64,000 bases of DNA from Candidatus Heimdallarchaeum aukensis (GTDB lineage Archaea > Asgardarchaeota > Heimdallarchaeia > Heimdallarchaeales > Heimdallarchaeaceae): the NCBI GenBank assembly GCA_021513695.1, contig CP084166.1, positions 32,001 to 96,000 on the forward strand. The letters are read 5' to 3'. The notes beneath the pieces are model-generated. The model saw only the letters and a list, made by a program, of their open reading frames with translations. It was not told the origin of the DNA and did not search any database. How positions within the stretch are numbered: position 1 is the stretch's first letter; the number at the start of each line of letters is the position of its first letter. Shown one piece after another: positions 22,718 to 49,791 of this stretch. The translations under genes were made by a program, and so were the position numbers.

Positions 22718-22720
22718 ATA

Positions 22721-26202: not shown

Positions 26203-28710
26203 GTGAAAAAAGTTAATTTAGCGAGACAATGGGTGTTGTCAACAATTTTGACTGTTTCTTTTTCACTCTTTATAATAATGGGTTCAAACACTTTAATTTT
26301 AGAGACACGAATTCAAGGATTGACTCAATCTACTTTTGATAAATATCTCGAATCAAAAATTGAAAGCATGGAGCTCTCCAGTTATCAATTTGCATCTTCA
26401 ATAGATTCACTCTTTGAAGGATATATAGTCTCTCTGAATAACACAGCAAAGTATATTTCTCATCAACTTTACTCTAATGAATCACTGGAAATTTATGAAA
26501 AAAACTATTTAGAATTCACAAATAGTGATGAAACCCTATATCTAAATGGTTTAATAAATGCTAGTGTAAGGCGAGAAGAAAAAATTGGTTACTTAGACTT
26601 CTATAATGATGGAACAAACATTATGGATACTCCAGGATTAGTTATCACTGGAAAAATTAAAAATACAATCTCAATACAAGGAATTATAACAGTTCAAACA
26701 AATGCTTCATTATCTGGAGAACTTGCATTAAATTCTTCTTTGCTTCTTTTTTACTCTGAACCTAATTCTAGTTTGTTCTCTGTTGATATTTCAGATTTAT
26801 TTCAAAGTTATTTCAACAACTCATTTAATGTTACTCTTCTTGGTTCATGGAATGAAGATCCAAATTTGATTCCTCAAGTAATAAAGTCTAGGATTAATTT
26901 TACAGAGTTTAGTTTCTTTAAAGAGTATTATGTTTTAAATTCGCCTAAAATGTCAAATATTACCTTAACAAAAGAATTAGAAATCTCAAAAATTGATGGC
27001 TGTATTGAGGGTTATATCTTAGGGCAGTATAAAGGTATATTAAAAGGAAACATTAATGGAGTTTTAAGTGGTTCAATTGATTTGCGTCCTAAATATATTT
27101 ATCAACATTTTCCTTCTCTACGTCAATCTTTTTTGCAATGGGTTTATTATGCAACACCAAATTATTTTATCATTTATCCATATTATCCTAACTATTTTGA
27201 CCCTGAGCATTTATTAGCTTTAACTATCGAATTTAATTGGTTAAAAAGACCTTGGTATAATGAAATATTGGCTCAAGAAATAAATGAAACAAGAAAGGGC
27301 GTAAAAGCACATTTTTCTAGTTTAGGAGTAGACTATGTGTTAAAAAATTTATTTATTAGTCTAGGGCAAGCAATTTATAATTCCACAGATTACCAAGGCC
27401 TTTTAGTACAAGATTTCAATTTAGATTTTTTGAAAAATGCTTTAGAACTTAGGATCACTCAAGAAGATTTTAATTGGCTTGTAGACAATTCAGGAAATAT
27501 TCTTTATTCTCCTGAATACTTTGAAAAAGAGAATGTATTCATTTTAACTCCCTATCCTACTTCTAATGTTTTTAAATTAAACAACAGTGCTCTCTCTAAT
27601 TCATTTCTAGCTGCTAAAGCAGGTGAATTGTCTCATATTGAGTTAACCTTCAACGAAACATCATACTTAGTTTTTTATAGAGAACTTGCTTCGCCAGATT
27701 GGTGGATGATTCACTTTTCACCCGTGGATTTAATTCTTGAAGAAATACAACCATTAATTAATGAAATGGAGAAAAACTTCAGAAATGTAGAAGTTATGCT
27801 CTTAGTTACATTGTTTGTTATACTATCTATTGTTGGGAGTATTGAAATATTCTTGACTAGAAATTATACAAAAAACTTAACTAAACTTAGAAACGCTATA
27901 GATCGGGTTTCTAGTGGAGATTATAGCGTTTCTTTTGACTTTAATAGAGAAAAATTAAATGAAATTACTGAAGTATTCTTCCTATTTGAAGAAATGGCTA
28001 TCAAATTAAACGATTCAATTGAAAAAGAAAAACAATCGACAATTTTAGCAAACCTTGCTCTTGACTTGTTTATTCATGATATAGGCAATTATTTGCATGC
28101 TCTAAATGGTTATTTGGAATTAGTTTCATTAAGGTCGGAAACTGAAGAAATGAAATCTCTTCTAGAGAAAATACGAAGAGTATTAGAAAAGACTGAACGG
28201 TTAAGGGATAGAATAATTGTTCTCCGTTCTTTAAGCAGTAAAAAAATGACTTATGCAAAAGTGAATCTAAAACAACAAATAGTAAAAGCACTAGAAAACG
28301 TAAAAATCTTTTATCCACAATTCATGATAGATTATGTTCAGCTTTTTGAAGATGATTTTTCAATTTATGTTTGTAATTACTTCACTGATTTACTAGAAAA
28401 CATATTTGAATTCTTTGTAAAACAATCTCAAACTAAAAAAGTTTCACTTCAGATAGATGCAATAGAAAAAGAAAAACATCTAGAATTAATAATTGAAGGA
28501 AAAGGAAAAGGTTTAAGCTATAGCAGAAAAATTCAGATACAAGAAGAGTTAGCTACAGGTAGAAGACTTTCTGATTTTAATTTAATTACAGCATATATGA
28601 TTGTTAAAAGATCTGGCGGAAGTATGGTTATTGAGGATATGGTTGAAGGAAAACCAGAAGAAGGTTCTAAGCTAATTCTTAAATTACCTAAAAATACACA
28701 GAAAATATGA
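26203..28710 (+). CDS. Sensor histidine kinase with a large Cache-like extracellular domain, a TM helix, a HAMP-like linker, and DHp and HATPase domains.
   Basis: - N-terminal TM followed by a roughly 500-aa ectodomain with LKRPWYNE (Cache-type motif).
- Second TM: MLLVTLFVILSIVGSIEIFL.
- H-box: FIHDIGNYLHAL.
- C-terminal ATPase-like region, with a degenerate G-box.
- GGAGG lies 10 nt upstream of the GTG start. Confidence 0.7.
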   Translation: MKKVNLARQWVLSTILTVSFSLFIIMGSNTLILETRIQGLTQSTFDKYLESKIESMELSSYQFASSIDSLFEGYIVSLNNTAKYISHQLYSNESLEIYEKNYLEFTNSDETLYLNGLINASVRREEKIGYLDFYNDGTNIMDTPGLVITGKIKNTISIQGIITVQTNASLSGELALNSSLLLFYSEPNSSLFSVDISDLFQSYFNNSFNVTLLGSWNEDPNLIPQVIKSRINFTEFSFFKEYYVLNSPKMSNITLTKELEISKIDGCIEGYILGQYKGILKGNINGVLSGSIDLRPKYIYQHFPSLRQSFLQWVYYATPNYFIIYPYYPNYFDPEHLLALTIEFNWLKRPWYNEILAQEINETRKGVKAHFSSLGVDYVLKNLFISLGQAIYNSTDYQGLLVQDFNLDFLKNALELRITQEDFNWLVDNSGNILYSPEYFEKENVFILTPYPTSNVFKLNNSALSNSFLAAKAGELSHIELTFNETSYLVFYRELASPDWWMIHFSPVDLILEEIQPLINEMEKNFRNVEVMLLVTLFVILSIVGSIEIFLTRNYTKNLTKLRNAIDRVSSGDYSVSFDFNREKLNEITEVFFLFEEMAIKLNDSIEKEKQSTILANLALDLFIHDIGNYLHALNGYLELVSLRSETEEMKSLLEKIRRVLEKTERLRDRIIVLRSLSSKKMTYAKVNLKQQIVKALENVKIFYPQFMIDYVQLFEDDFSIYVCNYFTDLLENIFEFFVKQSQTKKVSLQIDAIEKEKHLELIIEGKGKGLSYSRKIQIQEELATGRRLSDFNLITAYMIVKRSGGSMVIEDMVEGKPEEGSKLILKLPKNTQKI

Positions 28711-34543: not shown

Positions 34544-34709
34544 ACATGATTTTTAAACTTTAAATTTGACTGCTAAAAATGCAACTTTTCAAGGCTTGTA
34601 GTACATTTTATATATTAATTATCGTATAGTACTCTTTAGAGTTCTGGGATTGGAATTGGGGCTATTATTTCCTGGAGTAAGTAATTGAAAATTGAAAAGA
34701 AGTGTAAAA

Positions 34710-37700
34710 ATGAAAAAAAGTAAAATTAAAGTTATTTCTATTATCGCTATTTTTCTTCTCATCTTGAACGTCTCGACGATATACGTTCAAGGTCAGATGG
34801 TAGGTAATGAAACTAAATTAATGATGACTGGAAATCCTACAGAAGTTTATGAAGATCAGATAGCGATTCTGTATGATCCATTTAATGATATGACAAGAGA
34901 ACTAGCAAATTCGATTTATGAGACTGTTCATATGTTTTATTCTAACGTGAAAATGGTCAAAGTTTTCAATTTAGATTCATTTAACAGAGCTTTTTATGAT
35001 GATGATTGGATTAAAATCTATGTTTTCGACTCTGACTTAAAAGGAATAAAATTTGCTGGTTGGACAATGTCATGGAGAAAACTAACTGGATACTACAATG
35101 TTTTCAAAGATACAAGGCACATTGGAGTTTATGGAAACTCATACAAGATGGGTCCATATCTTAAGACTGAAAACTGTTATATAGAAAATACAGAGATTCT
35201 AGATTATCGTATTGCTTACATTCATGTATTGTGGTCATTATATGATATTTTTACAGAAAAAGAAGATGAAATTCTTCAACAAATAGGAGAAAATTTCAAA
35301 TTAATAGCAATTAAATATTTTGGAGATTCATTTGAAGAAATAATGTCTGCCGAGTTTGATCCACAAGGATTAGGTGTTGTTGACCCAAAAAAGGCAGAAG
35401 AAAGATTACAAGATTCAATGGACCAATATCCAAAGAGATTAAATAAAGTTAATCCATATACGGGTGAGTTAGTTGATCCAACAGCAGAGATTGAAGGATT
35501 TAATCCTGTAATGGATATTAAACCCAAAGCAGCGATAGATGAAGATGACATTGTTTTAGGTGAGTTTCCGTTCTTATCTTCGATTCCTGGAGCTGCAGGT
35601 GACGTTATTAAAATAATTTTAGAGTTTATAGGTGTCGAGATACCAGAAGGTTTATTGACTGTAGGTAAAGAATATGGGGGGCAGATCGTCGCAATAATTA
35701 AAGAGATACCTAAAATTATTGGTTTCTTTAAGGATCCAAGTGCAAGTAGTGCTATTGAACTATTTTTTGATGTAGCAAAAGAAATGTTTCCCAGTATAGA
35801 AGAATATAAGCCCTACTTCGATATAGTAGTGAAAGCCCTATTTTCGATAAAAGATATTGCTTCAGGGGATCTTACTCCTTTAATTGATATATCAATGGAA
35901 CTTCTACGATTTATAATTCCTGATAGTGTAGGAGATTTTGTTGACGATGTTTTTGATGCTTTAAACATATCAAGTGCCCTTTCTGATATTATTAGTGGAG
36001 TTACTAATGTTGGTGATTATCTTAAGAGTTTTCTCAATAGGCAACTAATTACAAATTTAATGAAGAAATTTATTGAACAGACTTTAGATCTAGGGGGAGA
36101 ATCCCAAAAATGGATAGATACCATTTCAGAGATTATTATGATTGCTTATGAAATTGCCAGCACTCGAGATATGGATCACATAATAGCGGATGTCTTTCCA
36201 CGATTAGGAAAATTAGTTTACAAGAACATCTTAGATATGACCTATGATGAAAATGTAGAAAATACCTTCAAAGGAATTGCTGTTGCAATTAAGATGGGTT
36301 TTGGAGCTGCTGGAATCATTGATGTTAATCTTAAGGATTCATTTATGGATTTAATAGGCTTCTTCTTCCCTGACCTCGTTGAGACAGTTAATGATGTTAA
36401 ATTCTTTGTTTCAAGTATTAGGTCTCAAATTGATTCCTTTATGGATCTTGTTAAAGATGTTTCAGAAGGTAAAAATCTAGATGTAAACAACGTTCATGAC
36501 CAAATTATATCTTTAATTACTGAGCTTAGTTCATTATCAGGTCATTCTCTCGATGCAAATAAGATAAATGTACTCTCTCAAGCTGTTTTGATGGCTTTAG
36601 CTCTAATAAATGGTGATTTTGAAGCTTTAAGTGATACTAGCTGCCTAACAAGTCTAGTTGATGGATTTCTAGAACATTTTATTGGACTAGAAGAAGGTCC
36701 TAGAGAAATTGTACAAAAGGCAATAGAAGCTGGAGCAGCTATTTTACCTTTCATTACTGGGAAAAAGAGTTTGAAAAAATATATTATGGGAAGACTTGAA
36801 GATTTTGCTGACAAATTCAAGAATCCTGGAGAAATAATTGAAAAGGTTCTTTATTATTTCCTAAGCAAGTACAACGCAAGTACTCAACTTTACCAACTTA
36901 TTGGAAAAATTGTAGGAATAGTCATTGACATCTTTTCTGGAGGATTTGACTTTTCTGTTCAAAATGTTATTCAGACAATAATCTCAATGGCAGTTGTAGT
37001 TTTGAACATGTTAGATGTCAATATTCCGTTAGAAGCAATGTACAAGAGTTTTCAACTTCTATGGGAAGAGGGGCCAGAATTTTCCAATGTTGTAAAAGTA
37101 GTTCAAGATATTATGGGATTACTTGGAGGAAGCATTGACCCAACAATTAAAACTACTGTAGAAACAGTTCTTACTTTTCTAGGAGGAGCAAAGAATATCT
37201 TCAAAGATGGAATAAAATGGATAATGAACCAACTTGTAGGTTGGGCAGCAGGGCAGATTGCTAATTTATTAAATATGCTTACTGATAAATTAAATGAACT
37301 GTTCCAATCTCTTGGTGATTTGGTAAGTTATGATTCTGAATTCCCAATTGGTTTCGGAAGTTTTACTGCCTTCCAGATGCGAGTATTCTTCTCTTTAAGT
37401 CCTGGATTCGAAATTAACCCTGAACCAATTCAAGAGCTCATTATGAGTATGATTTTTGATGGGTCAAAGGTTTTTGATCTCGATAATATCGGAGAATTGT
37501 TTAAGCTTATCTTAAAATCAATTTCAATTATTCCTATTTTCAAAGCTGGACTTGAAATCAAAGCAGGAACGTCTGGAAAGAACGACTTAATGAAGATGCT
37601 CCTTGATTCTCTTGGTCTGGAACTTTCATTCTCTGGCTCTGCAGGACTAACACTGCAATTAATGAAGATTTCTAATGGTAAAATAAGTACTAGTGATTTC

Positions 37701-40700
37701 TTCAAAGTAATAGAATTCTTCTTTAAATTCCAGATATCAATAGCTAAAACATTCCCATTAGCAGAATTTCTAGGTCCAGGAGGAGCAGTTTTAGCTAAAG
37801 TTGCAGAATTCTTAGGTTTAGGTGGAATTTACCTAAAGATAGAGTTCTTTATAGCAATAGAAATTGTTAAACGATGTGAGACACCTACTCAGAAGGCTGC
37901 AGATATTTTAACAATTGTAATAGGAATAGGTGTTTCTGTAATTATTGATATCGACTTGGTAATTGTTGGAATAAAAATAACTATAGGTTTTGTAGTGACG
38001 CTGACGTTTATCCAGGACTTCTTGGCGGACGCACCGCTGCAAGTGATACTCGAGATAGAGTTCACTGTAGCGGTGAAACTGACGTTCTTGTTCGTCGACT
38101 GGACAGGAACAGCGTCATGGGGTCCAGATCCAATTTATCTGGCAGGAGGACCGGATGATGAAAGCACAAAAGACGAAATGAGCGGCTTGGACGCAGATGG
38201 GGATGGGTTACCTGATTCATATGAGTTAGGAGTTCCAGGAATGAAAGTAGACAGCGATGACAGTGATGGAGACGGTTTATCAGACCAATTCGAAGTGAAA
38301 ACGAGTAAAACAGACCCTATCACTGCAGATTCTGACGATGATGGTCTAGATGATTACATGGAATATGAAGTCTTAAAGACCAATCCTCTACAAGTAGATA
38401 GTGACTATGATGGTTTAACTGACTATGAAGAAGTTGTTATCTATGGAACTGATCCTAATGCACAAGATACAGATGGTGATCAATTAGATGACTATTACGA
38501 AGTAAATACTGCATGGAATATCACTGGAATAACTCCAAGTGTAAGATTTGTTACAATTGGGGGAGTAGAGTATAAAGATCATACTGATCCTCTTAATCCT
38601 GATACTGATGGTGATGGACTTCTAGATGGACAAGAAGGAGAATTTGGGGCTTATTATGGACCAGAATTGTATAACACTTCAGACCCAAGTTGGGATCCCT
38701 ATCCAATATTCTACAATCAAGGATATACTCATCCATTAGATAATGATACCGATGATGATTCTTATAAACAATTAGCAAATGGAACTATAGCTCCAGATCG
38801 TCAGTTCTTAATCTATATGTCTGATAAGGTAGAAATAGATGGACAATGGGTTATTTTCATTGAAGATGATGAATTAATGGGTAGAGTAGTTAGAACTAAC
38901 CCAATTAACCCTGATACTGATGGTGATTCAGCAGTAATGGATAAATCTTGGAGAGGTGATGGGGCTCCTCTTGACTTTTTCCTGAAGTCTGATGGTTACG
39001 AACTCTGGTTAGATCCGCCGACAGACCCGAATGACGCGGATATGGACGATGATGGATTAATTGACGGTTTAGAGGGTTGGGGTAATAAGATCAGTAATCA
39101 TACTGATCCTCGTAATCCTGATACTGATGGTGATGGACTTGGAGACCTGCAAGATATTCTACTCGGTTCGGATCCTTTGAACCCTGATAGTGATATGGAT
39201 GGAATTCTAGATGGTGAGGAGTTCTTCAAGTATGGAACTAACCCCGCTTATGAAGATACAGATCATGATGGGCTTTTGGATGGTGAGGAAGTTTATCTAT
39301 TCCACACAAACCCTCTGGCGGTAGATAGCGATGGAGATGGGATAGATGATGGAATGGAGGTATTAGTTTATGGTTCAGACCCGATGGATGAAGATATGGA
39401 TAACGACGGTCTAACAGACTGGGAAGAGATTTTCTACTACTTTACCAATCCTAGAGATTACGACTCAGATGATGATGGTCTAAGTGATGCTATGGAGGTT
39501 TTAGATGAATATGCTATATACACTGACCCATTGAATTGGGACTCTGATAATGATTCAATCACATATCCTAATGAAAACGGAAATTATACTTTCCCACTTT
39601 CTGATGGAGATGAAGTACTAATTTACGGAACTGACCCATTGACAAGCGATACTGATGGAGATGGATTGCACGATTCGTTTGAACTATATCTTGGTTCAGG
39701 TTTAATTTACAACTTTACTCCTGTACCTTTGGATCCGTTATCTAACGATACTGATGGAGATGGAATATATGATGCAAATGAATACCACATTGCAAATGTC
39801 TCTAACATCATTTATCCTTATGTTAGTTTTATCATCACCCAACCTTACAATACTTCTCCAGTAGATCCAGACTCTGATGATGACGGGATTATCGATGGAG
39901 ACGAAGTCTATGTATATGGAACTATGCCAGATATGAAAGATACAGATGGAGATGGACTAGACGATTGGAGTGAACTTAATATTATGTATACTAACCCTCT
40001 GAGTTCGGATACGGACAATGACTATCTGACAGATTGGGAAGAATGGTATGCGGGTTTTGAACATCCAGGATATCTACTTGATCCTAACGACCCTGATTAT
40101 GATAATGATATGCTGCCAGATGGGCCAGAGTTACTACTTTACGGTTCTAATCCTAATAATGCCTATGAGATTGATCCAAGTTCAGGAAAAGTCGATGGTC
40201 TGTTGATGGATTGGGACCATGATGGTCTAGAAGATGGTTTAGAGTTCTTTGTATACAACACTAGTTATGTAGCAGGAGGAGGAGTCACCCAGCCAGATAG
40301 TGATAGAGATGGTTTGATGGATGGTGCAGAAGTATATGTTCATGGTACAGTCCCCACGAATTGGGATACTGACAATGATACATATAGTGATGGATTAGAA
40401 GTGATGTTAGGACTAGATCCTCTTACATATACAACAGAAGAGGAATTTATAGCAGCTCTATCTGCAAATCAAGATATGCTAGAAGCAGGAGTACTAGTTA
40501 TCTCACCAATAGAAGGTGGAATTTACTCTCCTTCTAACTATACTTTCATCCTCTATAACGTGACAGAACTACTGGGCGTACAATATCAAATGAAGAAGAA
40601 CAAACAAGATTTCGGAGACAACATGAGTATGTACTATGATGATGTTTCAAGGACGTGGATAACTCAAGGAGATTATATTGGACCTGGAGATTATATCGTC

Positions 40701-40913
40701 AGATTTTATGTGACAAAACCTGATGGAAATGTTTCGTTTATAGAACGGACGTTTTATGTCGAAGGAAGTCCAGTTGTCTCTCTACCTTGGGTCTTTGCGG
40801 GAATAGGTGGGGGAGTAGCTATTGGTGTTGCTTCAACTTTGACCGTTTATGCAGGAAGAGCAGGAAAACTGCGATTCTTAAAGAATATCTTTAAAAGAGG
40901 AGGTGCTTCATAA
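34710..40913 (+). CDS. Giant surface protein (about 2,067 aa). Domains in order: signal peptide, orphan N-terminal module of about 1,130 aa (helical then beta-rich), long TSP3 repeat array, beta-sandwich-like domain, C-terminal TM anchor.
   Basis: - The ATG at 34710 gives MKKSKIKVISIIAIFLLILNVSTIYVQG. The track start at 34692 is a TTG.
- More than 25 DxDxDGxxDxxE motifs lie at DNA about 38180-40400.
- C-terminal anchor: VFAGIGGGVAIGVASTLTVYAG.
- The stop overlaps the next start (TAATG). Confidence 0.85.
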   Translation: MKKSKIKVISIIAIFLLILNVSTIYVQGQMVGNETKLMMTGNPTEVYEDQIAILYDPFNDMTRELANSIYETVHMFYSNVKMVKVFNLDSFNRAFYDDDWIKIYVFDSDLKGIKFAGWTMSWRKLTGYYNVFKDTRHIGVYGNSYKMGPYLKTENCYIENTEILDYRIAYIHVLWSLYDIFTEKEDEILQQIGENFKLIAIKYFGDSFEEIMSAEFDPQGLGVVDPKKAEERLQDSMDQYPKRLNKVNPYTGELVDPTAEIEGFNPVMDIKPKAAIDEDDIVLGEFPFLSSIPGAAGDVIKIILEFIGVEIPEGLLTVGKEYGGQIVAIIKEIPKIIGFFKDPSASSAIELFFDVAKEMFPSIEEYKPYFDIVVKALFSIKDIASGDLTPLIDISMELLRFIIPDSVGDFVDDVFDALNISSALSDIISGVTNVGDYLKSFLNRQLITNLMKKFIEQTLDLGGESQKWIDTISEIIMIAYEIASTRDMDHIIADVFPRLGKLVYKNILDMTYDENVENTFKGIAVAIKMGFGAAGIIDVNLKDSFMDLIGFFFPDLVETVNDVKFFVSSIRSQIDSFMDLVKDVSEGKNLDVNNVHDQIISLITELSSLSGHSLDANKINVLSQAVLMALALINGDFEALSDTSCLTSLVDGFLEHFIGLEEGPREIVQKAIEAGAAILPFITGKKSLKKYIMGRLEDFADKFKNPGEIIEKVLYYFLSKYNASTQLYQLIGKIVGIVIDIFSGGFDFSVQNVIQTIISMAVVVLNMLDVNIPLEAMYKSFQLLWEEGPEFSNVVKVVQDIMGLLGGSIDPTIKTTVETVLTFLGGAKNIFKDGIKWIMNQLVGWAAGQIANLLNMLTDKLNELFQSLGDLVSYDSEFPIGFGSFTAFQMRVFFSLSPGFEINPEPIQELIMSMIFDGSKVFDLDNIGELFKLILKSISIIPIFKAGLEIKAGTSGKNDLMKMLLDSLGLELSFSGSAGLTLQLMKISNGKISTSDFFKVIEFFFKFQISIAKTFPLAEFLGPGGAVLAKVAEFLGLGGIYLKIEFFIAIEIVKRCETPTQKAADILTIVIGIGVSVIIDIDLVIVGIKITIGFVVTLTFIQDFLADAPLQVILEIEFTVAVKLTFLFVDWTGTASWGPDPIYLAGGPDDESTKDEMSGLDADGDGLPDSYELGVPGMKVDSDDSDGDGLSDQFEVKTSKTDPITADSDDDGLDDYMEYEVLKTNPLQVDSDYDGLTDYEEVVIYGTDPNAQDTDGDQLDDYYEVNTAWNITGITPSVRFVTIGGVEYKDHTDPLNPDTDGDGLLDGQEGEFGAYYGPELYNTSDPSWDPYPIFYNQGYTHPLDNDTDDDSYKQLANGTIAPDRQFLIYMSDKVEIDGQWVIFIEDDELMGRVVRTNPINPDTDGDSAVMDKSWRGDGAPLDFFLKSDGYELWLDPPTDPNDADMDDDGLIDGLEGWGNKISNHTDPRNPDTDGDGLGDLQDILLGSDPLNPDSDMDGILDGEEFFKYGTNPAYEDTDHDGLLDGEEVYLFHTNPLAVDSDGDGIDDGMEVLVYGSDPMDEDMDNDGLTDWEEIFYYFTNPRDYDSDDDGLSDAMEVLDEYAIYTDPLNWDSDNDSITYPNENGNYTFPLSDGDEVLIYGTDPLTSDTDGDGLHDSFELYLGSGLIYNFTPVPLDPLSNDTDGDGIYDANEYHIANVSNIIYPYVSFIITQPYNTSPVDPDSDDDGIIDGDEVYVYGTMPDMKDTDGDGLDDWSELNIMYTNPLSSDTDNDYLTDWEEWYAGFEHPGYLLDPNDPDYDNDMLPDGPELLLYGSNPNNAYEIDPSSGKVDGLLMDWDHDGLEDGLEFFVYNTSYVAGGGVTQPDSDRDGLMDGAEVYVHGTVPTNWDTDNDTYSDGLEVMLGLDPLTYTTEEEFIAALSANQDMLEAGVLVISPIEGGIYSPSNYTFILYNVTELLGVQYQMKKNKQDFGDNMSMYYDDVSRTWITQGDYIGPGDYIVRFYVTKPDGNVSFIERTFYVEGSPVVSLPWVFAGIGGGVAIGVASTLTVYAGRAGKLRFLKNIFKRGGAS
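38180..40400 (+). repeat. In-frame TSP3-type Ca-binding repeat array within the giant CDS 34710..40913.
   Basis: More than 25 DxDxDGxxDxxE units, interrupted by short non-repeat inserts. Confidence 0.8.
40897..40905 (+). promoter_or_regulatory. Shine-Dalgarno sequence for the second giant gene. It lies inside the 3' end of the first gene, and the stop and start overlap (TAATG).
   Basis: GAGGAGGTG lies 7 nt upstream of the ATG at 40913. The TAA at 40911-40913 shares its last A with the ATG. Confidence 0.7.
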
Positions 40914-43900
40914 TGCACGTAAAAAATAATTTAATTTGGAAGAAAGTATTAATCCTTTCTTTATTAGCTATAATGATTAGTTCACTAGTAGTAGGAATGC
41001 CCAATGCTCCGTTTGTTAATGCAGAAACTAATTCTGCACAATCTTTGCCTGATACAATAAGTTTAGAGGAAGCTAAACAACTAATGCAACAAATAAATGA
41101 AGGCAATGGTGGGGGCAACTTTGCTTCTGTTGAGCAACAAATCATTGATCCTGATTTAGATTTAAGTAGGTTATTAGCTGATAATCCTAATGAATATCAA
41201 CAAACATATCAACCTTGGAAATCTCAAGCTGCTGTTAGAAGTATAACCATCTCTGATGATTATGAATTTATGGCAGTAGGGGGAGGATATCTCTTTGACA
41301 ACGAAGTACAAGTATATCGATGGAACCCTGATATTAATCAATATGCTAAAGTTTGGGTGAGTGGAGATTCAGTTATTAAAGGCGATGTAATAGATGTCGA
41401 TTTTGGAGATACTGATAATAATGATTTCTTAGAAATTATTGCCACATCTTCTGACGGGTATTTCTACGTCTTTGAACAAGAACATATTTTTGACCCTGTA
41501 ACAAATACAGAAAATAGATTTGATCTTGTTTACACTAGTCCTTATTTAGGTCAAGTGTGGGGTGTAGAAGTTAATGATACAGATTTAGATCATCTAGACG
41601 ATATAATTGTCGTAAGTTGGGATCACAAAGTACATGTTTATGAATATTGGTTACACTCTGGTTATCCATTCAATTCAGAACATTGGATTACATATAGAGA
41701 AAAATGGCAAAGTCATGATACAGGTTATCATTTGTCTTCTTTAGTTGTTGGAGATACAAACTATAATGGTCTTCCAGACTTTGTTGTGGGAACGAGAGAA
41801 GGAGCTATTCTAGTTTTCGAAAATAATGGAACTATTTTAGATATCCAAGGACAACCTTATCCTCTTGCCCAAGATAATAGTTACAAATTAATTTATGCTG
41901 ATAATGAGTCAATTTGGAGACCAATTTACTCTATGGATATAGGTAATCTAGATAACTCTCCAGGAGATGAAGTAGTAATAGCTTCCTTTGCTTTTAATGG
42001 ATACATTCTAAGGTATGATGATTATAAAGGATATTACTTACAGAAGCTGATAAAAGACTTTGAATCTTGGACTTTGAAAGACTTTTATCCTGCAGATCAT
42101 TATGTAGATAATGGAACAGCAGGACAAAATGTATATTTCCAAGATCCAAATTATACAGGAACAACAGTTGAAGAGCCTATTTTGCAAAGTAATCCTGCAT
42201 TTATAAAAGGAAACTATCCCTATAATACTGGAGCTGCGCAAAATAATGATACATGTTATACTCATTTCGAATCTAATAGTACTCATGCTGCATGGGAAGT
42301 ATATGATTTTGGAGCAGATGAAGAGGGAACAGGAAATGGGAATGATGCTGCAGACATATTATTAAAATTCAAAACTTTACTATTTGATTACATATATAGA
42401 GATGATTTTATTATTTCTATCTCTCCAGACTATGAACATTGGGTAACTGTTGATCCTTCTCTTATTAATACATTTAATGTTGCCGCATCAACAAAATATC
42501 TCAGAATTAATGTAGATCCAATTTTAATTGAAAATAAATGGAATTACTTCAGATACATCAATGTAACAGTAATTTCTAATTCTACCAAAGATTATAACTT
42601 GTTATCTATAGAATTGCCTTATGTTTACCAAACTGTTTCAACAGCTTTAAGTGCTGAAGTGGGAACTTTAATGACCAGTACAGATACTAATGAAGAAGTT
42701 ATCCATGCAATTTTAGGAACAGTTGATGGCCGTCTTGTAGCTTTTAAATATGATGCCACTTCAGACTCGTTTGTTTTATCTTGGGATAGCTGGGTAGATG
42801 ATAGATTTACTGTTGGAATAAACATATGGGATATAGAACAAGTTAAGAATCTAGGCTCTATGCCTATGATATACGGAGTTACTGATTTGGAAACAGGTTA
42901 TCAACTTAGGATAAGTCCCTCTCCAGGAAGCCAAATTTCACAAGTGATTTTTGATTATACATTGTTCAATATTGATGGAGATTCTCCAGTTACAGGCGAA
43001 TTTGCAATTGTGGGTGGTAATGGAGATGTGTATTACTTTGATAATGGATTTGATTATGATGCTGCACAAACAACCCAATACTTCTCTTCGATCAACGATT
43101 ATGCAACTTATACAGGAAATATATCAATAGGTGCAGTAGAAATTGATACAGACTATTCCCAAGAAGAATTACTTATCGGTCATTACGATCCAAGTCTTTC
43201 TAATCAATACGATGACTTTGAAGATGATTCTTCAGATGTACTTCCAGCAGATATAAAAATATGGACACAAGTATCTTCAAAATATGAGTTAAATATATCA
43301 CTTTATAGTTTGGAAACAACTGGTCAACTTCGTGAAATATTAAAAAGTGCTCAATCAATTCCTTCAGCAGAAGGAGAGGATATTGATGGGGACGGAGATG
43401 TTGATATTGTTGTTTGTATTGAGAATCTATATCTACTTTGGAACATAGGAACACCAAGTAATCCAGAATTTATTTTGGATTCTGATTACTTTAAAGATAT
43501 AAATGAAGTAAAAGGAAGAAGACAATTCCTACATCCTCAATTTGTGGAATTTGAAATGGATGGAATTTATGATCTATCGATTGGCTACTCAAATAGAGTG
43601 GGAGCAACATATTTTGATAATTATGGAACTGCTCTTGCTCCTAAATGGGAAGAAAGAAAAGAGTTAGTTAACAACTTTGATGAAGAAGCTACAATAAATG
43701 TCTATAACTTTACTAGACCTCTCTGGATAAAATATTCAGAATTTGATGAATATTCTACTTTGTTATTAGAACATAATACAGGAAAGAGCTACTATGACAA
43801 GTACTACATATATACAATGCTAGATGATAGAAATGGTGACATGGTTTACTTCATGATTTCAAATAAAATACAAACTAGCTTCATGGTAGCATCTAATCCT

Positions 43901-46900
43901 ACTGTATCTAGAATCGAAGTTAACACCTTCAAATCTGAAGAATATGGAGGGATCTATAAGTGGAGGAATTTTGGATTTAGGGCAATTATAAGCTGGACGA
44001 CAGCAATAGATCTCTATAATTGGACTTTGACTGTAGATTCTGGAGATTTAGACCAAGATGGGAAAGGAGAAATTATAGTAGGAGACTATGATAGTAATGT
44101 ATACATCTTTGAGCATATGACTAATAATACTTACAAACGTGCATTCAGGTCTCCTGATATGCTCCAGTATGTTCCAACTGATGAAACACCTTATAGTTGG
44201 GACAAATTTGGAGGATATGAAGGAGAGTTTAATCAGACAATTTGGAACCATGTGAGCTATTTGCTTGTGAATGCTGATAGTGATGGAGACGGTTATCTTG
44301 AGTTAGCTGCTCTTGCAGGAACAGTTCTGTATGTATTTGAAGACACGGGAATAGATGATACATACTCATACATGTATAGACTAGATGTTTTAAGGAGTTC
44401 AGCAGGAGAATACTTGAAAGAAAATGGTTTTCTTACACCTTCTGGTTTAACATGGGCTCAAGATTTAGATTTAGATGGTTATGGAGAGTTCATAATAGCC
44501 TTTGAAAAACAAGTATTTGTTTATGAACCTTATTCTGGAACACTCTATGAACTGTTTGGTAATGTTGCATCTGATGACCCTGAAACAGGACACTATAATA
44601 TTTTAGGAAATGCTAGGGTATTTGATAATATTACAATAAATGGAATGTTATGTTCTGACATTAATGAAAATGGAAGAGAAGAACTTTTCATTTATGGTTC
44701 TGTAGATGTTGATCTTCTTGATTATGAAGAAGGATTTATTGTAATGATTGAAAGCATCGATCTAGGCTATAAGATAATCTGGCAAGGACCAACAGAGTTA
44801 GTTAGTAGAAATATTATTACAGACCTTGAAATTGCTGACCAGGACTATGATGGTTTCAAAGAATTGATCATTGGTGGAAGTAAAGGTGTAAGTATTTACG
44901 AATTTGTTGGAGGAACAACTGCTAGCTTTACTCAAGAGGGACTAATTACAGGACACATGAATTATCCCCAAATGGCAGCTCATTCACTATTTGGAAAATA
45001 TAGTTACAATGATGATTATGACTATAGAAAACAGAGGTCTCATGATATAAGACAGATAGTTTACAGTGGAGGTTCAAATAATCATTCATATATTTCTGCT
45101 TTTAGTGAGTATAACGATACAATGGGTGCATATGCTATATATCAAAAAGTAAGTCATGACGGAGTAAATTGGTTATCGAGCAAACTTATAGCTTATTGGT
45201 ATTCTGGTGGTTACATAAGTTTATACTTCCCCTCACTTACACAGACAAGTAATTACTCTCTCTGGTTAGCAGTTACTTGTAAATTTTATAGCGTAGGTTT
45301 AGGTTCCGTATATGGCGTTCTTCTATATCGTTCAGATGATTATGGGGCAAATTGGGTATTCGTAGATGGATTGGCTTCAGAATATATAGAAGAAGGTTCA
45401 ACAAATCCGATATATTCACCCACAATATTCCCAACAGGACCTAATTCAATAGGTTTAGTGTATATTTTCAGACCAAATAACACTTATTCAGAATTATACT
45501 ATGGAGGGTTATTTGATAATGGAACAGTAATACCTCAAACAAAAATCGAGGGTTTTGATGATTTCATGTTCAACGGTGTTGATGTTGATTCAAAACCTGA
45601 TAATAGTGGAGTATATGCTGCTGCTTTTAGTGCTAAAAAGTATATTGAAGAAAAAGATGATTACGATATCTGGTACTGTGAATTTAATTCAACCTATGGA
45701 TTAATACTTGAACCAAGAAGACTATTTACTTCATTCTCTGTTGAGCATACTCCTAGTATTACTTATGTCCACAATGATGCCTATTCTAGACTTCTAACAT
45801 TTGATTCTTCTGGATTACAAAAGGCGATGACTTTATCATATGGAATGGTTTCTGATGATGGAATACATTGGTCTGACCCAGATATACTTGCTGAATATCC
45901 AGAGTATATTATTCCTCCAACTAAGTCAAACCCCTATCCAAAGATATCTGGTTTCTCTAACAGTTGGAGTATATATGATCTAGGTTTCAGAGCTCCAAAA
46001 GTTGCTCCAACCTACGATGGTAAATTCATATTACTTACAAAATTTGATGCAACTATTGTCTACTTCTCATTCCCAATCTTCTATATATATTATTATAATG
46101 ACTACGTAAGCCAAATTTATCCATTGAACTTTACAAGTTTTGTAGGGTTAAACACTGTAACAGATCTTGCTGTTGGAGACTCGGATAGAGATGGTAGAAA
46201 AGAGATAATGATAGCTGATGGATATCGAGCAGAAATGTTTGAGTTACTTAACACAAAAAATAGGAAGCAACTTTATACAAGCAAATGGTATAGTCCTGAG
46301 CATGATAATCCTGTTTCCGATGTAACTATGTTTGACACAAATGGTAACGGTTTTCCTGAACTAATTTACAGCGTTCAAGGCGAAGACATTTATGTATATG
46401 ATGTTGTAAATATTCATTTACCAAAGGCAGATTTACATAAATTACAATCAACTACTTTAGACTTATCTGGTGCTGGAAAGGTTATAACTAGAATTAAATC
46501 AGATCTAAATGATGACGGAATAAATGACATGGTGGTTTATTGCGAAGGAGGAAAAATGTATGGAATCTTAGGTAATAACCTGTCAATTTTATGGACTTTG
46601 GAAGATTCATTAGTTTCTCCAAATTGGTTCCTCGAAGAATCAATTTATCATGGTAATAGTGCTCTAATTTTTGTAAATAGTAATGGAACAACTTTGTGGA
46701 TAGACAAGAAAACAGGACAAGTTATAACCTCTCTTGATTTAGGTGAAGGAAGTTATACCTTAAATCCAATAGCAACAATGCTTAACTATACAAAGGATAA
46801 CACCATGGACATTGCCATTAAAGGTGATGCTCCTGGACATATTTATCTCTTTGACGGGAATAATGGTTCGCTTCTAAAGGATCTCACTTTCGACACTGAA

Positions 46901-48922
46901 AGATATGTGCAAGAAATTGAAGTAGCACATGAGCAAGGAGAGGATTATCTCATAGTTTCTTATTATTGGATAGAATATAAAGACCTAGGTGGCGGTATTA
47001 TTGTATGGATATTCCATGGAAAGATTACTGCTTACAACTTATCTTCGTCCTCACTAGATCAAATATGGGAAGTTAACTCTTACTATGCTGGAGGATTTAG
47101 AGGGGCAAATTTAATAGTAGATGATATTAATGGAGATGGAGATTCAGAAATATATGCATTTGGTGGTGGAATAAAATTACTTGATGCTAATGGTACTGAA
47201 TATTGGCGGGCTTACAACTATTTCTACTCTTATGATGCTGTTATATTTGATATAAATGATGATGGAATTAAAGATATAATTACTTCTTCAGGACAGAATA
47301 GTAAAGTTACAGCTCTTGATGGAAAAGATGGAAATGTTACTTGGAGTAATATACCCACCCAGAATATCTATGACTTAGAGATTAGTGACCCAGAAGGAGA
47401 AGATCCAATCCTTTATCTAGCTAACTCTAGAACAGATTATCAAGGAATAATTTTCTTAAACATTAGGAATGGTGGGTTCTTAGGTTACTATTACGACACA
47501 AGTAGTGATTTTCTAAATGATAACGCATTGGTACCAACCACTGTGGATTCAAAACCTGCAGTCTTAGCAGTTGATTATGACGCAGAGAAAATTTATCAAG
47601 TTCAAATAAATGAAACAGAACAAGTTTATGAGCATGATATTATACCTAAACTCTCCTTTGATCAAATACTTAAAACTGGAAAGAATGTTAACCCCGATAC
47701 TGTTATTTATGACAATCTAAACGACGATGAGTATGTAGAAATTTTCTATATACAAAATGGAAATGAGTCATTCATCTATAATCCAATCAAAGGTGAGTAT
47801 ATTGAAGAATATACTATCCCTACAAATGGGAGTGTTCTTTATGCTTTCAAAGCTAATTTATCTGACACTTCATTCTATGATTCTATTTTTATAATTACCT
47901 CTGAATACAAGGTAGGTGTTTTAGATCTCACTTCAATGAGTTATAAAAAGATATTGGACTTATCAGGTTATGTAGATGAAATTGCTTCATATGCTTACTT
48001 GGATATTACTGAAGATGTATTTATTTTAGGTTTCTTTGACTATACAAAGAAAGCATGGTACGTAGGCGCATGGAATATTAAAGGAGAAGAGGTATTCTCA
48101 CCTATTTACCAAGGTTCTCATAAACCAGATCAAATAAATGCAGGTAAATTACTTGATAAAGCCACGTATGAAGAAGGAGCAGCTTTTGTAATAACAAGCT
48201 TTGGTGCATACATATATGCTTATGATCTTAAGGGAACACAACTAGCTATGATTAAACAAGATGGACCTGCAGGTTTCACAGCTTTAGGAGAACTGAAAAA
48301 AGGATTAGGTTTTGAGTTTGTTTACTATAGGTTTGGAGATAAATTCTACTGTTATAACCTTAATACCATGACTGATGAATGGTCATCTACTTTAAGAAAT
48401 GACAATGAACTATTATCTATTGCTGTAGGATATATTGATAGCTCTACTAATCCTGATTATGCTAAAGTATTTGTTTCGCAGAGCGGTACAGGAATTTATG
48501 CATTTGATGATGTAGATAAAGAGTTATGGTATCACAGACATAATTCTTTTGTTGCTAAATTCCTTCATGTGATCAATGATGAAGCTTTAGGCAAGGTTCT
48601 TCAAGTTACAGATTATCATAGAACATTCTACATCAATGGAACAACTGCTGAAGTTTTATATGCTACAAGTACCTTGATGAAACAAGTTCTTTGGGTAGGA
48701 ACATGGTCTTCTCCAGACTCTGCATATGACTCAATAGCATTCTTTGATGGAAACTCATTCTATAGTCGAGGAATAGATGTTTCTTCTTCAGGAGCTTCAA
48801 CAGTGCAAGATCATATGGAAATCTCTGCAGAAAGGTTAACAAGACTTAGTACTCCAATAATTATAATGATGAGTGTAATGGTAACCATAATCACTCTTGT
48901 CTTCAGAAAAAATAAAAGTTAA
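40913..48922 (+). CDS. Giant surface protein (2,669 aa). Domains: signal peptide, multiple FG-GAP/VCBS-type propeller repeats, an Asp-box (BNR) region, PQQ/BamB-like repeats, C-terminal TM anchor.
   Basis: - Strong SD GAGGAGGTG at 40897-40905.
- FG-GAP-like units: LVVGDTNYNGLPDFVVGTREGAILVFEN, DSGDLDQDGKGEIIVGDYDSNVYIFE, LAVGDSDRDGRKEIMIADGY, VDDINGDGDSEIYAFGGG.
- Asp-box-like motifs: SHDGVNW, SDDYGANW, SDDGIHW (DNA about 45150-45875).
- PQQ-like unit: ALDGKDGNVTWS.
- C-terminal anchor: IIIMMSVMVTIITLVF. Confidence 0.85.
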   Translation: MHVKNNLIWKKVLILSLLAIMISSLVVGMPNAPFVNAETNSAQSLPDTISLEEAKQLMQQINEGNGGGNFASVEQQIIDPDLDLSRLLADNPNEYQQTYQPWKSQAAVRSITISDDYEFMAVGGGYLFDNEVQVYRWNPDINQYAKVWVSGDSVIKGDVIDVDFGDTDNNDFLEIIATSSDGYFYVFEQEHIFDPVTNTENRFDLVYTSPYLGQVWGVEVNDTDLDHLDDIIVVSWDHKVHVYEYWLHSGYPFNSEHWITYREKWQSHDTGYHLSSLVVGDTNYNGLPDFVVGTREGAILVFENNGTILDIQGQPYPLAQDNSYKLIYADNESIWRPIYSMDIGNLDNSPGDEVVIASFAFNGYILRYDDYKGYYLQKLIKDFESWTLKDFYPADHYVDNGTAGQNVYFQDPNYTGTTVEEPILQSNPAFIKGNYPYNTGAAQNNDTCYTHFESNSTHAAWEVYDFGADEEGTGNGNDAADILLKFKTLLFDYIYRDDFIISISPDYEHWVTVDPSLINTFNVAASTKYLRINVDPILIENKWNYFRYINVTVISNSTKDYNLLSIELPYVYQTVSTALSAEVGTLMTSTDTNEEVIHAILGTVDGRLVAFKYDATSDSFVLSWDSWVDDRFTVGINIWDIEQVKNLGSMPMIYGVTDLETGYQLRISPSPGSQISQVIFDYTLFNIDGDSPVTGEFAIVGGNGDVYYFDNGFDYDAAQTTQYFSSINDYATYTGNISIGAVEIDTDYSQEELLIGHYDPSLSNQYDDFEDDSSDVLPADIKIWTQVSSKYELNISLYSLETTGQLREILKSAQSIPSAEGEDIDGDGDVDIVVCIENLYLLWNIGTPSNPEFILDSDYFKDINEVKGRRQFLHPQFVEFEMDGIYDLSIGYSNRVGATYFDNYGTALAPKWEERKELVNNFDEEATINVYNFTRPLWIKYSEFDEYSTLLLEHNTGKSYYDKYYIYTMLDDRNGDMVYFMISNKIQTSFMVASNPTVSRIEVNTFKSEEYGGIYKWRNFGFRAIISWTTAIDLYNWTLTVDSGDLDQDGKGEIIVGDYDSNVYIFEHMTNNTYKRAFRSPDMLQYVPTDETPYSWDKFGGYEGEFNQTIWNHVSYLLVNADSDGDGYLELAALAGTVLYVFEDTGIDDTYSYMYRLDVLRSSAGEYLKENGFLTPSGLTWAQDLDLDGYGEFIIAFEKQVFVYEPYSGTLYELFGNVASDDPETGHYNILGNARVFDNITINGMLCSDINENGREELFIYGSVDVDLLDYEEGFIVMIESIDLGYKIIWQGPTELVSRNIITDLEIADQDYDGFKELIIGGSKGVSIYEFVGGTTASFTQEGLITGHMNYPQMAAHSLFGKYSYNDDYDYRKQRSHDIRQIVYSGGSNNHSYISAFSEYNDTMGAYAIYQKVSHDGVNWLSSKLIAYWYSGGYISLYFPSLTQTSNYSLWLAVTCKFYSVGLGSVYGVLLYRSDDYGANWVFVDGLASEYIEEGSTNPIYSPTIFPTGPNSIGLVYIFRPNNTYSELYYGGLFDNGTVIPQTKIEGFDDFMFNGVDVDSKPDNSGVYAAAFSAKKYIEEKDDYDIWYCEFNSTYGLILEPRRLFTSFSVEHTPSITYVHNDAYSRLLTFDSSGLQKAMTLSYGMVSDDGIHWSDPDILAEYPEYIIPPTKSNPYPKISGFSNSWSIYDLGFRAPKVAPTYDGKFILLTKFDATIVYFSFPIFYIYYYNDYVSQIYPLNFTSFVGLNTVTDLAVGDSDRDGRKEIMIADGYRAEMFELLNTKNRKQLYTSKWYSPEHDNPVSDVTMFDTNGNGFPELIYSVQGEDIYVYDVVNIHLPKADLHKLQSTTLDLSGAGKVITRIKSDLNDDGINDMVVYCEGGKMYGILGNNLSILWTLEDSLVSPNWFLEESIYHGNSALIFVNSNGTTLWIDKKTGQVITSLDLGEGSYTLNPIATMLNYTKDNTMDIAIKGDAPGHIYLFDGNNGSLLKDLTFDTERYVQEIEVAHEQGEDYLIVSYYWIEYKDLGGGIIVWIFHGKITAYNLSSSSLDQIWEVNSYYAGGFRGANLIVDDINGDGDSEIYAFGGGIKLLDANGTEYWRAYNYFYSYDAVIFDINDDGIKDIITSSGQNSKVTALDGKDGNVTWSNIPTQNIYDLEISDPEGEDPILYLANSRTDYQGIIFLNIRNGGFLGYYYDTSSDFLNDNALVPTTVDSKPAVLAVDYDAEKIYQVQINETEQVYEHDIIPKLSFDQILKTGKNVNPDTVIYDNLNDDEYVEIFYIQNGNESFIYNPIKGEYIEEYTIPTNGSVLYAFKANLSDTSFYDSIFIITSEYKVGVLDLTSMSYKKILDLSGYVDEIASYAYLDITEDVFILGFFDYTKKAWYVGAWNIKGEEVFSPIYQGSHKPDQINAGKLLDKATYEEGAAFVITSFGAYIYAYDLKGTQLAMIKQDGPAGFTALGELKKGLGFEFVYYRFGDKFYCYNLNTMTDEWSSTLRNDNELLSIAVGYIDSSTNPDYAKVFVSQSGTGIYAFDDVDKELWYHRHNSFVAKFLHVINDEALGKVLQVTDYHRTFYINGTTAEVLYATSTLMKQVLWVGTWSSPDSAYDSIAFFDGNSFYSRGIDVSSSGASTVQDHMEISAERLTRLSTPIIIMMSVMVTIITLVFRKNKS

Positions 48923-49113: not shown

Positions 49114-49791
49114 ATGTTGATGGTACCTACTCAGATGAAAAAAATAACCATACTAGGGACAACTGGTAGTGGAAAGACCACCTTTTTAGAAGCTTTATTT
49201 GGTGATTTTGAAAAAAATGATGTTAAAAGAGATTTGAGTAAAGAAAAAAGTTCAAATTGTGATTTTATTCCTTTGAAAAATAATACATTCAAAGAAAGTA
49301 CAACAACAATAAGTTTGAATGTCATTAATTCATTGCTTTATTTGACTACATTTAATCGATTAGGTTTAGAAAAGTTCGAAAATAGAGACAATATTGACTT
49401 TGAAAATGTTGAAGAGATTTATCAAATAGTTTTCAATGATCCTGCAGGACAAGAAAGATTTGATTTCATGCAAGAGATAGCAGTAAGAGGAGCAAACCTA
49501 GTAATTATAATGGCTGATGGCACAAATATCTCGAGTTTAGAAAAAGTAGTTCATTATATTTCGTTGGTAAAAATTGAAGAAAATCTATCTAAAAAGAAAA
49601 TACCGACTATTATTTTCATCAACAAATCTGATTTAAAGGAAAAGGGTGTTTATTTAGGAAAAAATGTAGCTGAGCAGATTATTTATTCAAGCATTCTTGA
49701 TGAGAAATTACTTATTTATGAAACTTCTAACCTTAAGAGAGAAACATATGATGAACCTTTGAGGATTATTTTTAACTATCTTTCATACTAA
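49114..49791 (+). CDS. Small GTPase (Rab/Ras-like) with an extended switch-I region.
   Basis: - G1: GTTGSGKTT.
- G3: DPAGQERF (Rab/Ras-type DxxGQE).
- G4: NKSD.
- About 75 aa separate G1 and G3, which is longer than in canonical Ras-family proteins.
- GGGGGT lies 7 nt upstream of the start. Confidence 0.8.
   Translation: MLMVPTQMKKITILGTTGSGKTTFLEALFGDFEKNDVKRDLSKEKSSNCDFIPLKNNTFKESTTTISLNVINSLLYLTTFNRLGLEKFENRDNIDFENVEEIYQIVFNDPAGQERFDFMQEIAVRGANLVIIMADGTNISSLEKVVHYISLVKIEENLSKKKIPTIIFINKSDLKEKGVYLGKNVAEQIIYSSILDEKLLIYETSNLKRETYDEPLRIIFNYLSY

Follow-up and report, generated by a model that had tools for sequence, protein, structure and literature searches.

A GC- and CpG-rich island with a predicted four-way-junction RNA structure inside a giant gene of Candidatus Heimdallarchaeum aukensis

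The host gene and its GC-rich island

In this study, we analysed a 64,000-nucleotide (nt) stretch of the genome of the Asgard archaeon Candidatus Heimdallarchaeum aukensis (contig CP084166.1, positions 32,001 to 96,000 of the forward strand; this whole stretch is called the window, and coordinates count from its first letter). Within one very long gene of the window lies a short island that is unusually rich in G+C and CpG, and for its coding strand a stable four-way junction is the predicted fold. The features that define the locus are the following.

34692..40913, plus strand: host coding sequence (CDS), 2073 amino acids (aa); open reading frame (ORF) list, translation, Pfam matches and syntenic orthologs in Heimdallarchaeaceae
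37991..38210, plus strand: GC/CpG island, 51.8% G+C, 15 CpG, CpG observed/expected ratio 1.07; maximum of the window for both GC and CpG
37992..38111, plus strand: core of the island with raised G+C at third codon positions (GC3), 40 codons, GC3 0.70; strongest rare-codon cluster of 37 ORFs
38121..38150, plus strand: conserved linker GPDPIYLAGG, alignment anchor for all orthologs
38190..38207, plus strand: first DxDxDG motif (TSP3-type, calcium-binding), aa 1167-1172, start of the repeat array by motif map and Pfam

A recount of 37991-38210 returned exactly the 114 G+C among 220 nt that a preliminary description of this DNA had counted by hand, and the roughly 30% it gave for the surroundings compares with a measured 31.6% over the whole window (220-nt windows: mean 31.5%, standard deviation (sd) 4.7%). 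Sliding windows place the island at the top of the 64 kb for both measures, with the GC maximum of all 220-nt windows, 52.7%, starting at 37995 and the CpG maximum, 15 compared with a mean of 2.5, starting at 37973. The CpG observed/expected ratio is 1.07 in the island and 1.25 in its core, compared with 0.45 window-wide. Just two clusters, 37929-38364 and 38893-39360, reach a G+C content of 45% or more, and a binomial model predicts about 2e-5 island-like windows per 64 kb. The preliminary description had allowed that comparable GC spikes might be common; the spike is unique in the 64 kb, and we regard it as confirmed that it is real and statistically extreme for this window. No second copy of the island was found by low-stringency blastn in the window or the fetched loci.

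The spike is a synonymous-site phenomenon, and the encoded peptide is ordinary. Using 37 ORFs with 18,678 codons of the window as a reference set, in whose 40-codon windows GC3 averages 0.206 (sd 0.072) and outside the island reaches 0.50 at best, GC3 was found to rise from 0.15-0.20 to 0.70 over the 40 codons from 37992 (host gene mean 0.26), with G+C at first and second codon positions (GC1, GC2) staying nearly flat. The core holds 28 G/C-ending codons where 9.8 are expected from its amino acids (P<5e-5) and is the lowest codon-adaptation window among 3468. ACG, CTG and GCG account for 4% each of their codon families in the reference set, CCG for 3% and GTG for 7%, so that all the characteristic island codons, these five together with GTC and CTC, lie at 3-7% of their own families, which bears out the earlier description of dense rare CpG-containing codons. 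Rare synonymous codons in the core thus exceed what amino-acid composition predicts, as in a rare-codon cluster. In the 3' part of the island (38112-38210), G+C is driven more by Gly, Pro, Asp and Ala (GC1 ~0.65), with GC3 at just 0.35-0.47. It was also observed that the windows with the highest GC3 in the 64 kb come almost exclusively from the host gene.

The host protein, a giant surface protein, consists, from its N-terminus, of a signal peptide, a module of ~1130 aa, an array of TSP3_bac repeats that contains inserts, and at the C-terminus a beta domain followed by a transmembrane anchor. The N-terminal module has no Pfam match; the TSP3_bac array is matched with E 3.7e-23, and its DxDxDG motifs run from aa 1167 on. 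An AlphaFold model of aa 861-1260 is of low confidence (predicted local distance difference test score, pLDDT, 49) and was used for secondary-structure limits alone; at this confidence it puts the last long beta-strands at aa ~1092-1109 and 1117-1132, followed by disorder after ~1133. The GC3 core encodes aa 1101-1140 and spans the end of the N-terminal module with, in this low-confidence model, its last two predicted beta-strands, and the rest of the island encodes the linker and the first DxDxDG motif. The claim that the island coincides exactly with a domain boundary therefore holds roughly: Pfam, the motif map and the low-confidence model all place it near the module end and the TSP3 start, and the coincidence is not exact.

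Distribution among relatives

The closest DNA is that of Candidatus Heimdallarchaeum endolithica PR6 (CP084167.1, locus L003), with 85% identity over 21.7 kb. The two species have an average nucleotide identity of 88%, and both were enriched at 37-40 °C (PMC8813620). Besides the window, the island is carried by PR6 and by the JGI metagenome contig Ga0180301_10006506 (L007), the three carriers being 94-97% identical in the island and contig L007 being 98.4% identical to PR6. Since an intact ORF containing the island is found in each of three independent assemblies, a chimeric assembly is excluded, and the misassembly or chimeric join that had initially been considered is refuted. Four distant Heimdallarchaeaceae orthologs (L001/L006, L004, L005 and L008) have no island, showing at the homologous place a GC3 of 0.25-0.45 and 3-8 CpG compared with 15 in the window. 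The absence of the island from orthologs, which the preliminary description had named as a sign against it, is accordingly found beyond the genus and not within it.

The full-length orthologs in PR6, L004 (2066 aa, 57% aa identity) and L005 (2048 aa, 52%), aligned over 2029 columns, share the architecture of N-terminal module, linker and TSP3 array, and the island peptide is colinear with every ortholog found, with no indel. Because distant orthologs share the domain junction and have no island, the junction must be older than the island, and the suggestion of a recombination or horizontal-acquisition seam, in the sense of a fusion scar, is unsupported. On the comparison of these orthologs, the island appears to be young and genus-specific, having arisen in the Heimdallarchaeum stem lineage. 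An old, weak rare-codon signal of the whole family was considered and rejected, being mostly amino-acid composition: corrected for amino acids, the excess of GC-ending codons in the core gives P 0.06-0.40 in the distant orthologs, and the sole significant outgroup is L005, with 28 GC-ending codons over 75 where 17 are expected (P=0.001). The amino-acid divergence of the island is likewise ordinary, with a derived fraction of 0.10-0.12 compared with a gene mean of 0.10. All homologs found are low-GC Heimdallarchaeaceae, with 33-38% GC over the DNA of each locus, and searches of 5.8 billion proteins, GTDB representative genomes and JGI metagenomes turned up no GC-rich homolog or donor, for a group whose sampling is thin. 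An exact-pattern scan of IMG/VR with the 5' arm of hairpin B (see below) gave no match in viral contigs.

Several observations concern the host gene in the public assemblies. In L008 (Ga0366834_1003874, 1-1250), the ortholog is broken ~60 codons upstream of the island position by a deletion of ~24 aa and a frameshift, leaving a partial ORF of 191 aa and, after it, a separate TSP3 ORF of 954 aa, which could be a real split, a pseudogene or an assembly error. Two public contigs (L001/L006) end exactly at the first TSP3 motif, just past the position equivalent to the island, and a third (L002) stops at aa 919; this gene tends to be a breakpoint of short-read assemblies. Upstream of the host locus, M42 peptidase, QRPTase, NadA and NAD kinase genes are found in conserved synteny, also in distant genomes. 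Giant genes of Aloposons encode 3000-6000 aa and lie beside tRNA sites (PMC8813620); an identity of the host gene with such a gene was rejected on account of this conserved upstream synteny and of the missing tRNA in the 64 kb. The host gene shows no paralogy with the neighbouring giant gene. Further downstream, an ORF that encodes two ferritin-like domains (49844..50818) comes after the gene of a small GTPase of Ras/Arf/Roc-like type (49114..49791). Heimdallarchaeum is reportedly mentioned in a 2026 preprint that deals with a double-ferritin-fold protein of an Asgard archaeon.

The predicted fold on the sense strand

Folding in silico of the 301 nt at 37950-38250 gives -104.4 kcal/mol for the sense strand compared with -80.5 (sd 4.7) for dinucleotide shuffles, a z-score of -5.1, and a z-score of -1.9 for the antisense strand. 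With the same kind of shuffles, the compositionally homogeneous core reaches z -5.6 over 171 nt and -4.2 over 120 nt. We additionally compared the native sequence with 1000 synonymous-codon shuffles, which preserve both the protein and the local codon set. For the 129 nt at 37992-38120, -60.0 kcal/mol was obtained compared with -40.3 (sd 4.3; z -4.6), with none of the 1000 shuffles as stable, and for 171 nt only two of the 1000 were as stable as the native sequence. This excess implies that the stability stems from the arrangement of the codons and not from composition alone. In a scan of 170-nt windows with a step of 85 on both strands, the sense strand of the island ranks first by z among 1500 window-strands, and its minimum free energy (MFE) of -70.7 is by far the lowest, the next beyond the island being -48.8; elsewhere, z falls below -4 in ~0.6% of the scanned windows. 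The sequence is thus more stable than composition-matched controls, as is asked of a structured RNA.

The MFE fold of the sense strand at 37995-38118 is a four-way junction of 124 nt, in which an 8-base-pair (bp) closing stem P1 encloses the hairpins A (27 nt), B (44 nt) and C (27 nt).

37995..38002, plus strand: 5' strand of P1, GUGACGCU; pairs with 38111-38118, bp probability 0.97-0.98 in the window, L003 and L007
38005..38031, plus strand: hairpin A, 5+5 bp with an internal loop; least robust arm
38032..38075, plus strand: hairpin B, 10+4+4 bp with two 1-nt bulges and a 6-nt loop; most robust arm
38084..38110, plus strand: hairpin C, 11 bp including 3 G.U pairs, 5-nt loop
38111..38118, plus strand: 3' strand of P1, AGCGUCAU, from the MFE fold; C to T at 38113 in PR6 turns G-C into G.U

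The junction contains ~8 G.U pairs, which are impossible on the antisense strand and with which the sense-strand preference is consistent. The same four-way junction is the MFE structure in the window, PR6 and L007, with bp probabilities of 0.96-0.98 for P1 and B; B alone stands at 0.96 in all three carriers, and A declines from 0.94 in the window to 0.81 in PR6 and 0.48 in L007. Among the seven variable sites of the junction, one is a bulge, three interchange Watson-Crick and G.U pairing, and at the other three a pair at the end of a helix is lost. In hairpin A, end pairs are struck by two of these substitutions; in hairpin B, A to G at 38069 turns U-A into U.G and A to G at 38042 falls in a bulge; in hairpin C of PR6, G to A at 38106 turns U.G into U-A and A to T at 38109 breaks one pair. 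This substitution pattern is compatible with constraint but not significant. In an alignment of six sequences, 76% of the cells pair, and the outgroups lend the fold no energetic support.

The comparison with the outgroups indicates for hairpin B that changes on both arms jointly create pairing at the cost of amino-acid replacements: TTG to CTC lies opposite TTG to GAG (Leu to Glu), and TCA to GCG (Ser to Ala) lies opposite CACCGC. Clustered complementary changes on both arms, some of them non-synonymous, are also what intra-strand template switching, i.e. correction of quasi-palindromes, would leave behind, in which case the hairpins would be a stable fold with no function. P1 is moreover a near-perfect 8-nt inverted repeat (TGACGCTG/CAGCGTCA) whose copies lie 108 nt apart. 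Nevertheless, hairpin B has two bulges and a wobble pair between its arms, which a single copy event does not leave, one event would be needed for each of at least four separate helices, and both the G/C enrichment and the GC3 at unpaired sites stay unexplained. We therefore regard template switching as the least probable of the explanations weighed here.

Structured RNA genes of AT-rich archaeal genomes stand out as GC-rich islands, and an independent gene overlapping the host CDS has to be considered, either a small RNA (sRNA) of ~125 nt that is transcribed or processed from the sense strand or a short ORF that is antisense or in another frame. The compact four-way junction with its closing stem resembles stand-alone RNAs, the frame from 37991 is open through the island up to a TGA at 38157, and antisense ORFs of 44-62 aa are present. 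However, Rfam 15 gave no match at gathering thresholds in the whole window, and in an E-value search of 37850-38350 the best matches scored 13-14 bits compared with thresholds of 36-55, i.e. at chance level (C/D-box sR2 13.4 bits compared with 42, snR67 13.6 compared with 55). An archaeal C/D-box sRNA was rejected because the sR2 match at 38151-38217 is below threshold and its GAUGAUGA derives from Asp-Asp-Glu codons. A tRNA or transfer-messenger RNA (tmRNA) cloverleaf was likewise discarded, since Aragorn found neither in the 64 kb and the junction, at 124 nt with arms of 27/44/27 nt, does not match one. No overlapping ORF is convincing, for a start codon is missing from the alternative sense frame and the antisense ORFs are of low complexity; in addition, all three differences of PR6 in the core that are synonymous in the main frame fall on position 1 of alternative-frame codons. 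An overlapping gene is thus considered very improbable. Inspection of 37965-38090 also led us to reject a -1 frameshift signal, as no slippery X XXY YYZ heptamer lies 5-8 nt upstream of P1 or of hairpins B and C.

Apart from this, some further signals were recorded. Four of the 16 copies of GACGC/GCGTC in the window lie inside the island (37997, 38028, 38112 on the minus strand, and 38190), two of these simply being stem P1, and GGACGCA is present as two direct copies. As this observation was made post hoc and two of the copies are P1 itself, the enrichment was set aside as a signal. Other stable 170-nt folds of the window are found at 21162-21331 (z -5.3/-4.05 on the two strands), 16487-16656 (z -4.9), 22607-22776 (z -4.4), 18357-18526 (z -4.15) and 82-251 (z -4.2), none of which is GC-rich or matches an Rfam family at the gathering threshold. 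The whole 64 kb contains no tRNA gene and no RNA at Rfam gathering level.

Further GC-rich patches and the reading of the island

The second of the two GC-rich clusters of the window lies further downstream in the same gene and is defined as follows.

38893..39360, plus strand: patch 2, a weaker GC patch, from composition and substitution polarity

Its GC maximum of 46.8% lies at 38947 and is caused by amino-acid composition (GC1 0.6-0.65) together with a GC3 of 0.40-0.50. The fold z-score of +0.6 to +2.6 is no better than that of shuffles. Between 38980 and 39070, some ten codons of the window end in G/C where those of PR6, L007 and three outgroups end in A/T. The preliminary description was therefore right that a smaller patch exists, but not that it is of the same character, since it is weaker and of a different nature, having no fold and being specific to the lineage of the window. 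A third GC3 patch, observed at 40542-40631 (GC3 0.53 over 30 codons, 1951-1980), lies in the C-terminal domain and gives no fold signal.

Patch 2 is positioned where a folded insert ends and the TSP3 repeats resume, and an association of GC3 patches with module boundaries is suggestive. It is merely so, since the third patch lies within a domain and not at a junction and the limits are taken from a low-confidence model; the generalization that all GC3 patches sit at module junctions fails on the third patch. The association bears on a further explanation, by which the rare-codon cluster itself was selected for translational pausing during co-translational folding or export of the N-terminal module, with the RNA structure as a side effect. 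The cluster is the strongest of the 37 ORFs and covers the last ~40 codons of that module, the position of patch 2 is similar, the outgroups show a slight GC3 excess (L005 as given above, the others at P 0.06-0.4), and rare-codon clusters conserved at specific positions have been described (PMC5438181). An excess of folding over shuffles of the same codon set is, however, not predicted by codon-level pausing, the third patch is intradomain, and distant orthologs have the same domain boundary without the cluster. About half of the unusual codons end in C and need not be slow, NNC codons normally being decoded by the same GNN tRNAs as NNU. Taken together, we consider codon pausing as the primary cause improbable.

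The main rival for the origin of the island is a non-adaptive GC-raising tract, i.e. conversion with or import from an unsampled GC-richer ortholog, or GC-biased repair, which would have rewritten ~120-220 nt in the ancestor of the genus, so that the fold would be incidental. The island resembles such a tract in being G/C-ending where the outgroups are A/T-ending, and so does patch 2, where ~10 synonymous changes from A/T to G/C (W to S) and none in reverse (S to W) were found at 38980-39070 in the lineage of the window. Both the sharp 5' edge of the GC3 step and its length, typical of a conversion tract, fit this explanation, as does the raised GC3 at unpaired sites of the junction. Local composition moreover appears to drift patchwise between the window and PR6: W/S differences are symmetric in total (1094:1094) and form local directional clusters both ways. 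The strongest of these, at 27568-27718 in ORF 26203..28710, has 18 sites that are G/C in the window and A/T in PR6 and none in reverse (GC 0.35 compared with 0.24); a cluster in the reverse direction is seen at 47878 (10:23). A tract of 497 nt at 41534-42030, inside the second giant gene (40913..48922, FG-GAP repeats), has a single mismatch to PR6 (41662) where the regional average is 85% and the longest identical run is expected at ~50 nt. It probably reflects recent recombination between the two species and would thereby attest DNA exchange between them. As a separate observation, the 170-nt window at 41987 folds with z -4.4 on the minus and -3.4 on the plus strand.

On the other hand, an incidental fold should resemble synonymous shuffles, and here none of 1000 is as stable, with the island at the top of 1500 window-strands. 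Neither a GC-rich homolog in the databases listed above nor, under thin sampling, a donor or local phylogenetic incongruence was found. The ordinary amino-acid divergence of the island does not favour a tract, and the other directional clusters are of far lower amplitude, 0.35 compared with 0.24 in the case above. We therefore hold a GC-raising tract to be unlikely as the explanation of the island, while treating it as the principal competitor.

We tentatively prefer a reading in which the island is a genus-specific mRNA structure kept by selection, built from and accompanied by the rare-codon cluster and acting in cis at the end of the N-terminal module, and we rate this reading at somewhat short of an even chance. 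In broader terms, the island probably represents a signal of recent origin at the RNA level of a coding sequence, and not the scar of a fusion or an error in assembly. By this reading, some 18 or more third positions within ~40 codons would have changed from A/T to G/C in the common ancestor with Ca. H. endolithica, as the orthologs suggest, and several replacement sites would have changed too (Ser AGT to Thr ACG, Ser TCA to Ala GCG, Leu TTG to Glu GAG). These changes would be placed such that the sense strand at 37995-38118 folds, in silico, into the four-way junction with -60 kcal/mol for 129 nt. The composition, codon rarity, excess stability and strand preference were shown here, as were the presence of the island in the sister species and its absence further out; what we infer beyond this is that the fold is maintained by selection and has its effect in cis on the message of 6.2 kb, either by slowing ribosomes or by an effect on the fate of the mRNA. 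Most plausibly, the structure would be a local obstacle that slows ribosomes when the module of ~1130 aa is completed, before the calcium-binding TSP3 array is made, and the cluster of the rarest codons would add to this slowing. Alternatively, it may be a site that affects processing or stability of the mRNA.

Several observations weigh against this preferred reading. Taken alone, the hairpins are weak (z -2.2 for B, -0.5 for C), and third positions of the junction are G/C in 6 of 10 unpaired as well as in 23 of 32 paired cases (Fisher P=0.70), so that pairing alone cannot account for the GC enrichment, unpaired third positions being likewise G/C-rich. The W to S changes of patch 2, which have no fold signal, indicate that a GC-raising process needing no structure acts in the lineage of the window. 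Covariation support is absent, as there are three carriers of 94-97% identity, and the three of six paired-site substitutions that keep the pair are not significant; the embedded RNA structure proposed in the preliminary description is thus backed by thermodynamics (z -5.6 and -4.6, first of 1500, sense over antisense) but not by covariation. Imposed on the distant orthologs, the structure of the window has +13 to +23 kcal/mol and is therefore not ancient; the element, if functional, is dispensable in close relatives with the same protein. Finally, the identity of the island to PR6 (97%) does not stand out above that of its 1.5-kb neighbourhood (91-94%), so that conservation alone is uninformative, and raised nucleotide conservation was rejected as a sign of constraint. 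A locally different selective constraint, also proposed at the outset, is compatible with these data and unspecific.

A more specific version of the preferred reading is that an RNA of ~125 nt with a four-way junction evolved de novo in Heimdallarchaeum by coordinated synonymous and a few non-synonymous changes inside the conserved CDS of the giant surface protein, and that it is cis-regulatory at a module boundary, as a translation brake or a site of mRNA processing or stability, or else is set free as an sRNA. This version is possible, and we would put it forward with considerable reserve. The candidate element belongs to no described RNA family and is best filed as an uncharacterised intragenic mRNA structure with a rare-codon cluster.

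Among known systems, rare-codon clusters at domain ends (PMC5438181, PMC2833160) are similar in having the rarest codons near the end of a large module, kept here in the sister species. In contrast to them, the codon order of the island folds far more stably than shuffled orders do, a significant cluster is mostly missing from more distant homologs that share the boundary, and the amplitude in the island is extreme (GC3 0.70 compared with 0.21). With cis-acting mRNA structures in ORFs, such as frameshift stimulators and structure-dependent pauses, the island shares a stable, G/C-rich, multi-helix structure predicted on the sense strand; it differs from frameshift stimulators in having no slippery heptamer and no predicted alternative-frame product, and from both in being a four-way junction and not a hairpin or pseudoknot. 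The combination of ~52% G+C in a 31.6% genome with strong predicted structure is also that of GC-rich noncoding-RNA islands of AT-rich archaea, but this island is in-frame sequence within a conserved CDS, its host grows at 37-40 °C (PMC8813620), and it matches no Rfam family. Tracts of GC-biased conversion or import in prokaryotes are comparable in their short, one-directional silent shift from AT to GC, and patch 2 shows the same pattern in a single lineage; the island differs by folding better than synonymous shuffles of itself, and neither a donor nor phylogenetic incongruence came to light.

As a practical consequence, orthologs should be checked before spikes of GC3 or CpG are called fusion scars or chimeric joins. 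If the island is instead a conversion tract, it would together with patch 2 be concrete evidence that GC-biased processes act strongly and locally in an archaeon. Should the structure be functional, one stretch of DNA holds two codes, a protein beta-hairpin and an RNA four-way junction, and the birth of the second code could be assigned to a single genus, sister lineages still showing the ancestral states. Asgard archaea are the closest known relatives of eukaryotes, and the island would then represent a datable functional RNA structure born inside an ORF of this group, which could serve the study of how RNA elements originate in coding DNA and of how the synthesis of very long secreted proteins is paced in Asgard archaea.

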